NCBI GenBank assembly: GCA_964016885.1
Contig: OZ024740.1
Coordinates: 326,678,001 to 326,742,000 of the forward strand
Direction: 5' to 3'
From: Eledone cirrhosa
Lineage: Eukaryota
Length of the DNA stretch: 64,000 nt
Below, one piece after another: positions 7,027-50,233 of this stretch (position 1 is its first letter; every line of letters begins with the position of its first letter). Position numbers and translations under genes: made by a program. The notes below the pieces were generated by a model. The model had not been told where the DNA came from. It did not search any database and worked only from the letters and a program-made list of their open reading frames with translations.

Positions 7027-10000
7027 AAATATAAGTATGTACACGTACATACATATATGTATACAGACGTACAGTAGTATGTATATATACATACACACAC
7101 GCACACATATATATGTACGTATGGATTCACCGAATATTTATTATAATGCTCGATGTGTTTGTAAACAAACATCCCGTATTAAGCCGTAGTGTCCAGCAAC
7201 CATCGTTGCTCGTTTGTTCAACACTGACAAAGGAACGCTGTACTAGTTTCAAGCTTATTAGCTATCGTCAGCAACGTATACCTTTCTGCCAGATTGTTGA
7301 ACGTATATACTTACCTTATGCATATTAACGGCTGAATAGCCCAATTTGCATATCGAGTGGGTTAATCGGCCGGGTGCACCGAATACGATAAACGGAAAAA
7401 ATGAAACGAAATTTAATTTCCCACTCTTAGTACGGCTGTTACTTAAATATAAGTATGTACACGTACATACATATATGTATACAGACGTACAGTAGTATGT
7501 ATATATATATACATACACGCACACATATATATATTTATATGTACGTATGGATTCACCGAACATTTATTATAATGCTCGGTCTGTTTGTAAACAAACATCC
7601 CGTATTAAGCCGTAGTGTCCAGAAACCATCGTTGCTCGTTTGTTCAACACTGACAAAGGAACACTGTACTAGTTTCAAGCTTATTAGCTATCGTCAGCAA
7701 TATACCTTCCTGCCAGATTGTTAAACGTATATACTTCCCTTATGCATATTAACGGCTGAATAGCCCAATTTGCTTATCGAGGGGGTTAATCGGCCGGGTG
7801 CACCGAAAACGATAAACGGAAAAAATGAAACGAAATTTCATTTTCCACTTTTAGTATGGCTGTTACTTAAATATAAGTATGTACACGTACATACATATAT
7901 GTATACAGACGTACAGTAGAATGTATATATATATACATACACGCACACATATATATATATATATATATATATATATATATGTACGTATGGATTCACCGAA
8001 CATTTATTATAATGCTCGGTCTGTTTGTAAACAAACATCACGTATTAAGCCGTAGTGTCCAGCAACCATCGTTGCTCATTTGTTCAACACTGACAAAGGA
8101 ACGCTGTACTAGTTTGAAGCTTATTAGCTATCGTCAGCAACGTATACCTTTCTGCCAGATTGTTGAACGTATATACTTACCTTATGCATATTAACGGCTG
8201 AATAGCCCAATTTGCATATCGAGTGGGTTAATCGGCCGGGTGCACCGAATACGATAAACGGAAAAAATGAAACGAAATTTAATTTCCCACTCTTAGTACG
8301 GCTGTTACTTAAATATAAGTATGTACACGTACATACATATATGTATACAGACGTACAGTAGTATGTATATATATATACATACACGCACACATATATATAT
8401 TTATATGTACGTATGGATTCACCGAACATTTATTATAATGCTCGGTCTGTTTGTAAACAAACATCCCGTATTAAGCCGTAGTGTCCAGAAACCATCGTTG
8501 CTCGTTTGTTCAACACTGACAAAGGAACACTGTACTAGTTTCAAGCTTATTAGCTATCGTCAGCAATATACCTTCCTGCCAGATTGTTGAACGTATATAC
8601 TTACCTTATGCATATTAACGGCTGAATAGCCCAATTTGCTTATCGAGGGGGTTAATCGGCCGGGTGCACCGAAAACGATAAACGGAAAAAATGAAACGAA
8701 ATTTCATTTTCCACTTTTAGTATGGCTGTTACTTAAATATAAGTATGTACACGTACATACATATATGTATACAGACGTACAGTAGAATGTATATATATAT
8801 ACATACACGCACATATATATATATATATATATATATATATATATGTACGTATGGATTCACCGAACATTTATTATAATGCTCGGTCTGTTTGTAAACAAAC
8901 ATCACGTATTAAGCCGTAGTGTCCAGCAACCATCGTTGCTCATTTGTTCAACACTGACAAAGGAACGCTGTACTAGTTTGAAGCTTATTAGCTATCGTCA
9001 GCAACGTATACCTTTCTGCCAGATTGTTGAACGTATATACTTACCTTATGCATATTAACGGCTGAATAGCCCAATTTGCATATCGAGTGGGTTAATCGGC
9101 CGGGTGCACCGAATACGATAAACGGAAAAAATGAAACGAAATTTAATTTCCCACTCTTAGTACGGCTGTTACTTAAATATAAGTATGTACACGTACATAC
9201 ATATATGTATACAGACGTACAGTAGTATGTATATATATATACATACACGCACACATATATATATTTATATGTACGTATGGATTCACCGAACATTTATTAT
9301 AATGCTCGGTCTGTTTGTAAACAAACATCCCGTATTAAGCCGTAGTGTCCAGAAACCATCGTTGCTCGTTTGTTCAACACTGACAAAGGAACACTGTACT
9401 AGTTTCAAGCTTATTAGCTATCGTCAGCAATATACCTTCCTGCCAGATTGTTGAACGTATATACTTACCTTATGCATATTAACGGCTGAATAGCCCAATT
9501 TGCTTATCGAGGGGGTTAATCGGCCGGGTGCACCGAAAACGATAAACGGAAAAAATGAAACGAAATTTCATTTTCCACTTTTAGTATGGCTGTTACTTAA
9601 ATATAAGTATGTACACGTACATACATATATGTATACAGACGTACAGTAGAATGTATATATATATACATACACGCACACATATATATATATATATATATGT
9701 ACGTATGGATTCACCGAACATTTATTATAATGCTCGGTCTGTTTGTAAACAAACATCACGTATTAAGCCGTAGTGTCCAGCAACCATCGTTGCTCGTTTG
9801 TTCAACACTGACAAAGGAACGCTGTACTAGTTTCAAGCTTATTAGCTATCGTCAGCAACGTATACCTTCCTGCCAGATTGTTGAACGTATATACTTACCT
9901 TATGCATATTAACGGCTGAGTAGCCCAATTTGCATATCGAGTGGGTTAATCGGCCGGGTGCACCGAAAACGATAAACGGAAAAAATGAAACGAAATTTCA

Positions 10001-10260
10001 TTTCTCACTCTTAGTACGGCTGTTACTTAAATATAAGTATGTACACGTACATATGGATGTACATATATATATGTGTCCGTGTATGTATACATACTACTGT
10101 ACGTCTGTATACATATATGTATATACGTGTATACATATATATATGTGTGCGTGTATGTATATATATATATATACATACTACTGTACGTCTGTATACATAT
10201 ATGTATGTACGTGTACACACTTATATTTAAGTAACAGCCGTACTAAGAGTGGGAAATGAA
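7027..10260 (-). mobile_element. Retrozyme-like tandem array, ~430-bp monomer x7 (864-866-bp dimer periodicity), plus short inverted arm at ~10075-10260
   Basis: Tandem repeats visible directly. One minus-strand HHR core per unit. No meaningful ORF. TA-rich flanks. Confidence 0.85.
7235..7277 (-). ncRNA. Type I hammerhead ribozyme (first of 7 in the 430-bp array)
   Basis: Reverse complement reads acgttg-CTGACGA-tagct aata agctt-GAAA-ctag-TA-cagcgt. Stem III ACTAGT is palindromic. Confidence 0.88.
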
Positions 10261-10410
10261 ATATATATATATGCACACACACACACACACACACACACAC
10301 ACACACACACACACACACACACACACACACACACACACACACACACACATATATATATATATATATATATATATATATATATATATATATATATATATAT
10401 ATATATATAT

Positions 10411-48992: not shown

Positions 48993-49282
48993 TCTATATA
49001 TCTAAAACCGAGAATGTCTGTTTGTCTGTCTGTCTGTCAGCTCACTAAAACTCGAGAACCACCCAACCGATTGTTTTCAAACTTTACGCATGTAATACTT
49101 ATGGTCCTGTGAGTGTTTTGAGAAAAGAAAATTTCATATTTTCAATGCCCTAGGGACCGCATTAGGCGATTTAGCGATCTCTCTCTTTAATTTTTAGTCT
49201 TTCTTTTTAGATAGATACATAAATATAACGTTGCGCCCTTATAATATCTGTCTGTATGTCTGGTTGTCTGCATTACGACATT
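48993..49282 (+). mobile_element. Helitron 5' fragment related to 47136
   Basis: A|TCTATATATCTAAAACCGAG..., aligns with 47136-47425. Confidence 0.7.
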
Positions 49283-49399
49283 ATGACGCGGTGTCTGTGT
49301 GTGTGTGTGTGTGTGTGTGTGTGTGTGTGTGTATATATAGTGTATATATATATATATATATATATATATATATATATATATATATATATATATATATAT

Positions 49400-50233
49400 A
49401 TGAATGTATATATAGTGTATTTTGCAATAAAAGCATTTCGACGACCTTATGCTATTGTTTTAGAGTAGTGACAGACTCACTTTAATTTTCAGCAAACATG
49501 GGAGATAAAGCTGACAAGGCCTTGTTTCGCATTTATTGATGCTTATCAAAGCCAAATACTCCTCCTGTTTTCTGAAATCATGGATGTTTGGTTCTTATAG
49601 ATTTCTAGTAAATAATCAGGAACTGATTATACAGAGCGGTTGCCGATCAAGCAGAAATTGAAAATTAGAGTTGGTGCTCTGAAATAGCTATATATATATA
49701 TATGAATGTATATATAGTGTATTTTGAAATACACTGTATGCTTAATTAAAAGCATTTCGAAGACCTTATGCTATTGTTTTAGAGTAGTGACAGGCTCACT
49801 TACTTTAAGCATAAGGTCTTCGAAATGCTTTTAATTAAGCATACAGTGTATTTCAAAATACACTATATATACATTCATATATATATCGCTATTTCAGAGC
49901 ACCAATTCTAATTTTCAATTTCTGCTTGATCGGCAACCGCTCAGTATAATCAGTTCCTGATTATTTACTAGAATTCTATAAGAACCAAACATCCATGATT
50001 TCAGCAAACAGGAGGAGTAGTTGGCTTTGATAAGCATCAATAAATGCGAAACAAGACCTTGTCAGCTTTATCTCCCATGTTTGCTGAAAATTAAAGTAAG
50101 TGAGTCTGTCACTACTCTAAAACAATAGCATAAGGTCTTCGAAATGCTTTTAATTAAGCATACAGTGTATTGCAAAATACACTATATATACACTCATATA
50201 TATATATAGCTATTTCAGAGCGCCAATTCTAAT
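49400..50233. mobile_element. Retrozyme-like element, ~320-bp monomer, two head-to-head arms of ~1.3 units each
   Basis: Period 318-319 bp. Inversion at ~49807. HHR on - at 49509-49553 and on + at 50023-50067. (TA)n flanks. Patchy homology to the 311-bp monomer. Confidence 0.82.
50023..50067 (+). ncRNA. Type I hammerhead ribozyme, U3-A8 variant
   Basis: ggct-TTGATAA-gcat caataa atgc-GAAA-caag ac cttg-TC-agct. Confidence 0.8.

Follow-up and report, generated by a model that had tools for sequence, protein, structure and literature searches.

How non-coding tandem repeats that carry hammerhead ribozymes (HHRs) spread through a genome, and what they have to do with the Penelope-like elements (PLEs) beside them, are questions raised by a stretch of DNA from Eledone cirrhosa (GCA_964016885.1, contig OZ024740.1, 326,678,001–326,742,000 of the forward strand), hereinafter the window, 64,000 nt in length. 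A reading made from the letters alone (the sequence-only reading) had proposed at least four families of such arrays, mobilised in trans by the co-located Penelope proteins. Our favoured answer, which we hold as probable, is that the repeats are dispersed as head-to-head arrays in (TA)n, likely inserted by a PLE reverse transcriptase (RT)-endonuclease, which probably uses monomer RNA, self-cleaved and circularised, as the template for synthesis on either side of a DNA break.

Tandem Repeats Finder defines three tandem arrays in the window (periods 424, 466 and 311), and self-BLAST of the window reveals an inverted arm beyond each of them and a fold-back at 49332–50284. The HHR-bearing features are listed below by monomer length; "short" and "long" denote two kinds of outer end, described afterwards.

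7026 to 10262, minus strand: 424-family insertion; tandem array 7026–10053, unit lengths 418–442; minus arm of about 7.3 units with 7 HHRs; short inverted arm to 10262; (TA)n at both ends
After 9825, 9397, 8971, 8533, 8107, 7667 and 7241, minus strand: HHR cuts of the 424 array; in two of the seven HHRs, 8971 and 8107, G12 is changed to C
10409 to 12082, minus strand: 466-family insertion; minus arm 10409–11693 (2.8 units, long end) and plus arm 11690–12082 (0.8 unit, short end); 4 HHRs
12098 to 13142, minus strand: a fifth family of 551–553 bp; 1.9 units; 2 HHRs with a long stem II and stem III ACUAAUUAGU
38064 to 41544, minus strand: 311-family insertion; minus arm 38064–41073 (9.7 identical units, long end) and plus arm 41073–41544 (1.5 units, short end); 11 HHRs
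44100 to 44465, plus strand: two diverged HHR-bearing stubs of about 190 bp, both decayed, of an old dispersed repeat
49391 to 50233, strand not assigned: 320-family fold-back; minus arm 49391–49808 (short end) and plus arm 49808–50233 (long end); 2 HHRs with a U3-A8 core

The hammerhead arrays are real, as the sequence-only reading had held. A strict HHR descriptor with a palindromic stem III matches 31 times in the window and not once in each of 30 block-wise dinucleotide shuffles, and the stems carry compensatory changes. The model searches suggested at the time fared differently: Rfam models at gathering score give 0 HHR matches in the window, and detection relied on custom descriptors that had to allow a U-U pair and a U3-A8 core for 311, 424 and 320. 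Family-specific patterns place exactly one type I HHR in each unit of 424, 466, 311 and 320 (7, 4, 11 and 2 in the window, respectively), with the sense on the minus strand in the window arrays. The single HHR per unit, too, had been claimed, along with the stem III palindromes ACUAGU (424 and 466), ACGCGU (311) and ACAAGGCCUUGU (320), which we recovered.

Self-cleavage of the monomers is predicted from the conservation of the HHR core and the covariation of its stems. Specifically, the core is kept in 16/17, 42/51, 39/41 and 41/42 distinct copies, the last being the U3-A8 variant UUGAUAA of 320. In the lineage of 424 and 466, 95.7% of the stem cells pair and 6/16 pairs change on both sides, a covariation matched in 1/500 shuffles, which is not a probability since it comes from six related sequences. 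Between 311 and 320, three stem II pairs and the core pair (C3-G8 to U3-A8) change on both sides; stem I is misregistered in this alignment, and only stem II and the core pair were used. The predicted circular folds of 311, 320, 424 and 466 are stabler than those of 40 shuffles (z −3.9 to −10.5), with 58–69% of nucleotides paired in these four. A long predicted stem extends stem I in all four, so that the enclosing stem proposed for 466, 311 and 320 is predicted for 424 as well. The arrays are non-coding, with no open reading frame (ORF) of 120 aa inside and a GC content of 0.34–0.37. No RT or GIY-YIG reading frame was found in the monomers, and no long terminal repeat (LTR) layout in the insertions mapped. 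The HHR lies on a single strand of each unit, and there is no sign of RNA-to-RNA replication; the earlier epithet "viroid-like" holds only loosely.

The insertions follow one plan, of which the sequence-only reading had missed two parts, namely the inverted second arm and the (TA)n setting of each of the four arrays (424, 466, 311 and 320). In RNA sense, a typical insertion consists of (TA)n, an outward arm, a joint, a second outward arm and (TA)n. Each family has two fixed outer ends downstream of the HHR. The short and long ends lie 140 and 166 nt after the HHR cut in 311, 145 and 170 nt in 320, 230 and 302 nt in 466, 75 and 197 nt in 553, and 220 and 279 nt in 424 (234 and 293 nt on a longer reference). 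As a rule, the two arms take one end of each kind. Among 76 head-to-head pairs in the 94 loci of a first sample, 59 are short+long, 1 is long+long, none is short+short, 14 have an atypical end (3 of these are one triplicated insertion) and 2 are cut off; testing 59/60 against 0.5 gives p of about 1e-16. A second sample of 40 new loci (311 and 466), read with the same windows, contains 27 short+long pairs, 5 other, 2 cut off, 6 loci without a pair, and no like-with-like pair. Both samples together hold 86 short+long pairs, 1 long+long and 0 short+short.

(TA)n adjoins 120/148 outer ends, as read from occupied sites, and 67/82 insertions are simple head-to-head pairs with an adjacent inverted 5'-truncated copy. 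Inner ends are spread uniformly over the unit except in 320 (p 0.01, probably from sampling), and they often overlap by 1–10 nt. Both arms exceed one unit in 28/59 pairs, and the longer arm falls to either side (32 vs 27).

The families are dispersed, which agrees with the proposal of retrozyme-type elements and not with single-locus satellites. All five occur on many chromosomes of the 3.0-Gb assembly, with best matches 95–100% identical. A first look gives 303, 514, 2809 and 1639 candidate matches for the four families and 2457 for the fifth; these are not copy numbers, and only about 40 candidates were scored per search. Loci taken from these searches are designated L and a number. The 320 family, described earlier as a tandem array, is in the window a fold-back of 1.4 and 1.3 units, and is tandem elsewhere, reaching 28.5 units in L104; another very long array, of about 31 units, is that of L220. 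The claimed period of about 430 bp belongs to the 424 tandem family.

As to the number of families, 311 and 320 are homologous (z 35), as are 424 and 466 (z 26–38), and the two pairs are mutually unrelated; therefore these four families represent two lineages. The 551–553-bp family, overlooked before, matches neither lineage. The pair of about 190 bp, which had been counted as a decayed array, does carry HHRs and is decayed. Its copies are 71% alike and their best genome matches are 77–83% identical and nearly all single, so that the pair is probably not a tandem family. The flanks of sampled loci (L066, L081, L085, L090, L091, L103, L106 and L125) contain eight or more additional HHR types, together with a 476-bp element related to the 424 family; the genome holds many more such HHR families. 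Three runs of unrecorded type with other organism labels (X4, X5 and X6) were compared with window 38372–38993 and 10420–12075. Each contains a single 340-nt contig of the 311 family, equal to one unit plus 30, and X4 also one of 497 nt from the 466 family. A closed loop of this kind can come from a perfect tandem array no less than from a circle; the contigs show that other samples contain close relatives, and are silent on expression. The runs listed as containing the repeats include no RNA run, which is equally uninformative on expression.

The anatomy is common to autonomous PLEs. The window contains four PLE copies:

3143 to 6525, strand not assigned: NepB, broken Neptune-type PLE fold-back; GIY-YIG at 4145–4585; intact relatives of 715–784 aa elsewhere
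26857 to 31158, plus strand: HyA, frameshifted and 5'-truncated Hydra-clade PLE with an inverted end copy and a tail of about 97 nt; intact 892-aa relatives elsewhere
31200 to 38052, strand not assigned: HyB, truncated Hydra-like PLE fold-back plus an inverted HyA copy (34883–38052) adjoining the 311 array
50732 to 54085, plus strand: NepA, broken Neptune-type PLE fold-back; HHR cuts after 53960 and 50857; many identical intact copies elsewhere

All of them are truncated or frameshifted, and intact frames lie elsewhere in the genome (many identical ones of 775 aa for NepA, 784 aa for NepB and 890–896 aa for HyA). By motifs, the 892-aa HyA protein belongs to the Hydra clade (RWK, DKT, a CxCX5C linker, no CCHH, with HHR and (TA)n present), and NepA and NepB are of the Neptune/Nematis type, not split further (DKG, a CX2-5CxxC linker and a CCHH endonuclease). 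Canonical endonuclease-containing (EN+) PLEs are described with a single ORF (PMC8557442); here an upstream ORF is present in NepA (449 aa, L117:7711–9060) and NepB (about 330 aa, L186:906–1898), the former with no Pfam match above cut-off. The short and long ends lie at 124 and 178 nt in 5/5 NepA loci, at about 55 and 152 nt in 5 two-armed HyA loci, and at 124 and 163 nt in 12 NepB loci, read by eye. In NepA and HyA, just as in the monomers of the retrozymes, the next unit begins directly where the tail ends. At G000:C4:322577500–322604000 (L110–L112), full-length 4211-nt NepA units lie head-to-tail in both arms of one fold-back, adjacent units differing at 1 position, which is the retrozyme layout at 4.2 kb.

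In published PLE insertions, an inverted copy truncated at its 5' end is accompanied by a tail, which is found at one end (PMC8557442). Both strands of the target are cut and then extended by purified PLE protein, and reverse transcription begins internally, at two positions downstream of the HHR that delimit the tail (PMC11167929). Because the insertion anatomy matches this tail and three autonomous PLE families show likewise, mobilisation by PLEs is well supported, and we regard it as very probable that PLE enzymes made the retrozyme insertions.

The helpers are probably not those once proposed. The window PLE copies are broken and are therefore neighbours through a common (TA)n target, not helpers; the NepA, NepB and HyA families, with intact copies elsewhere, remain candidate helper families. 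Against a parent PLE among them, comparison of the monomers with NepA, HyA and NepB ends gives z of at most 3.4, and the window PLE ends show no convincing homology either; two monomer matches to PLE ends at z above 5 are TA-rich low complexity and were rejected. A Neptune-type helper seems somewhat better founded than a Hydra-type one, because of three weak hints. The NepA HHR is built like those of 311 and 424, with U-U at the stem II base and a 6-nt palindrome; NepB has a U3-A8 core with a stem II resembling 320, a likeness that is not significant; and among 214 arms there is one PLE-retrozyme chimera, in which a NepB-like arm stands head-to-head with a 424 arm (L088:1703–3107). The chimera has 4 bases common at the joint and no (TA)n between the arms, and both outer ends are long sites, so that deletion between neighbours fits as well. 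Other than that, none of the 214 arms runs on into a PLE reading frame.

What the enzyme copied can be read from the arms. Copying starts 75–302 nt after the HHR cut and crosses the cut in 110/118 arms (sampling favours such arms); the template was thus circular, or an uncleaved multimer, or a monomer between whose ends the enzyme jumped time after time. Across the cut, the spacing stays the same in 195/195, 98/98 and 66/67 junctions, or 359/360 exact, and inner ends do not pile up there (6/148 vs about 3.8 expected in the first sample, 0/64 in the second). In the 311 family, the majority haplotype is common to both arms in 12/12 loci and 153/162 units equal it; several distinct haplotypes are each fixed over 9–16 units. 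The inner joints are random: all 68 compared are different, and none of 82 insertions reads through into the opposite arm. We consider a circle to be probably the main template, with multimers probably used some of the time.

Several observations weigh against this account. Mosaics of several haplotypes occur in six loci (L067, L104, L200, L201, L202 and L208), which a single monomer circle cannot give, and in L200 and L201 the haplotype runs are common to both arms. An identical majority unit fills both arms in only 2/4 testable 466 loci of the first sample. Periodic blocks (the window 424 dimer, L066 and L063) suggest that arrays can also be lengthened or mixed at a later stage; as an explanation of the window 424 periodicity, a dimer circle was rejected, since the pattern is broken in the end units. 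A sense-strand excess of A>G among locus-wide variants in the first sample (10 vs 1 T>C) was not replicated in 38 new loci under stricter polarisation (4 vs 3 T>C), and an RNA-editing footprint stays unconfirmed. The sampled loci are top-scoring full-monomer matches, which favours young insertions and long arms; the first sample served to set the ranges that define the ends, of which the long one of 424 was broadened to include the end of the copy in the window. In an in vitro PLE assay, HHR cleavage is not needed and unprocessed RNA is the main substrate (PMC11167929), and 8/9 Xenopus retrozyme dimers did not cleave (2026 preprint, Li et al.).

Some of these points would be expected if the same PLE machinery and start sites were used on a long uncleaved or partly cleaved array transcript, the HHR being largely a passenger and circles a by-product. 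The substrate preference in vitro and the mosaics of L200 and L201 would follow, arrays as long as those of L104 and L220 could be the sources, and the active NepB family (L153–L193; window 3287, minus strand) carries a fixed HHR variant, a U3-A8 core with GCAA replacing GAAA. We nevertheless think it unlikely, since no joint recurs among the 68 and none reads through into the source's opposite arm, haplotypes fixed over 9–16 units need either a one-unit bottleneck or many long uniform sources, and the HHR cores are kept while their stems covary. The bottleneck, and perhaps the mixing of haplotypes, could also come from a linear self-cleaved monomer on which the RT jumps repeatedly from the 5' end to a 3' end, as the R2 reverse transcriptase does. 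Such jumping is very improbable as the general template route: the cut-site junction is exact in all but one case, arms end at the cut no more than by chance, and in L200 and L104 the haplotype also switches at places other than the cut.

That the repeats are solo PLE end stubs or satellites, arrayed only by post-insertion duplication at the DNA level, would account for the local periodic blocks and for the 190-bp pair, which looks so, and according to a proposal in the 2026 preprint an inserted terminal repeat is amplified locally. It hardly fits the pairs in which both arms exceed one unit, nor the 311 family, 99–100% identical across chromosomes yet with arms of median 5 units, nor the lack of arms running on into a PLE reading frame apart from the one chimera, and we give it next to no credence. 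Two further schemes were rejected: snap-back copying of one arm from the other as a general rule (either arm can be longer, and mirror-position variants matched in 19/140 tests), and L1-type twin priming with collision (10/118 arms stop at the other's start vs 9.7 expected).

Copying from a circle would proceed as follows. The array would be transcribed, and HHR pairs would cleave as dimers through the palindromic stem III, after which ligation of the monomers would give circles with extensive pairing. A PLE protein, probably dimeric, would cut both (TA)n strands, as suggested by the anatomy and by PMC11167929, with one strand primed at the short site of the RNA and the other at the long site. 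Both complementary DNAs (cDNAs) would run back past the HHR site, extending over as many as tens of units, and would join at random phases, often via a few bases of microhomology. A bolder version is possible, if short of probable: the insertions may be fossils of twin rolling-circle reverse transcription, in which a dimeric PLE enzyme on one ribozyme-made circle starts from both strands of a cleaved (TA)n target, at a different fixed site for each, and its two active sites go round the circle until the cDNAs join. This would apply equally to the autonomous 4.2-kb Neptune-type element; given its full-length head-to-tail units in both arms, circles would be the usual PLE intermediate and the hammerhead indispensable for making them.

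Other repeats of the window touch on these elements to varying degrees. A 4.5-kb inverted duplication, 99.2% identical (27984–32472 and 33591–38052), takes in HyA beyond the end of HyB and may be due to transduction, to folding back of DNA or to the assembly. Solo stubs of PLE ends, each bearing an HHR, lie at 43386–43692 (this one folded back, its tail about 90 nt long) and at 63783 (minus strand). The remainder comprises a non-LTR retrotransposon fragment with zf-RVT (58724–60004, minus strand), a 60-bp minisatellite of 9 copies (41935–42471), and a dispersed repeat of about 350 bp in three copies (14672–15034, 47133–47432 and 48974–49332).

Like the metazoan non-LTR retrozymes (Cervera and de la Pena 2020, PMC7229834), the Eledone families consist of tandemly repeated non-coding units, each a few hundred bp long with a single type I HHR, have a GC content below 50% and are predicted to form highly paired circles; like the axolotl retrozymes of that study, they combine a palindromic helix III with U-U at the base of helix II. 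That study demonstrated circles and cleavage, whereas the families described here are known from sequence. It already pointed to PLEs as the likely mobilisers and put forward a circle as the source of tandem cDNA; its main text contains neither "inverted" nor "octopus", and the head-to-head, two-end anatomy was not found described in it. The 2026 preprint of Li et al. treats retrozymes of 51–972 bp, like the families here, as non-autonomous PLE derivatives. Its evidence is co-occurrence and homology to PLE terminal repeats (pLTRs) in Xenopus, its available text covering neither molluscs nor insertion ends, whereas here the link is anatomy. pLTR homology holds for 24/57 Xenopus families and is not universal; none was found here among the window PLE ends and the NepA, HyA and NepB ends sampled. 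The minimal hammerheads of PLEs (Cervera and de la Pena 2014, PMC4209133) likewise have a palindromic helix III predicted to act in dimers. Their U3-A8 core variant is known in Schistosoma Cercyon elements, whereas here it occurs in retrozyme 320, whose sister family 311 has C3-G8.

With EN+ PLEs (PMC8557442, PMC11167929) the insertions share an inverted arm, a tail at one end, starts downstream of the HHR, and microsatellite or AT-rich targets. They differ in lacking coding capacity, in multi-unit arms on both sides, and in tails of 25–120 nt vs 30–40 nt. PLE copying in vitro showed no start-site difference between strands (PMC11167929), whereas here the site differs between the strands in nearly every case, 86 to 1. 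We found no paper on cephalopod retrozymes or retrozyme insertion ends, although supplements, Repbase and Dfam may hold these families; the main text of a 2026 octopus repeat annotation does not contain the word "ribozyme" (PMC13282606). By the criteria of their sequences, the five would be new families of non-LTR retrozymes, in a class whose existence and PLE link are already in print. What is added is quantitative insertion evidence for PLE machinery and a strict rule, one short and one long end per pair, which five retrozyme and three PLE families follow. The spread of retrozymes, the origin of tandem and inverted PLE insertions and the role of PLE hammerheads are called open in the literature (PMC8557442, PMC11167929, PMC7229834, 2026 preprint). 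To these questions the genome brings small young templates (311 nt, 99–100% identical), start sites predicted to the nucleotide and, as candidate helpers, three families of which intact copies exist, so that with the existing PLE in vitro assay both helper and circle become directly testable.

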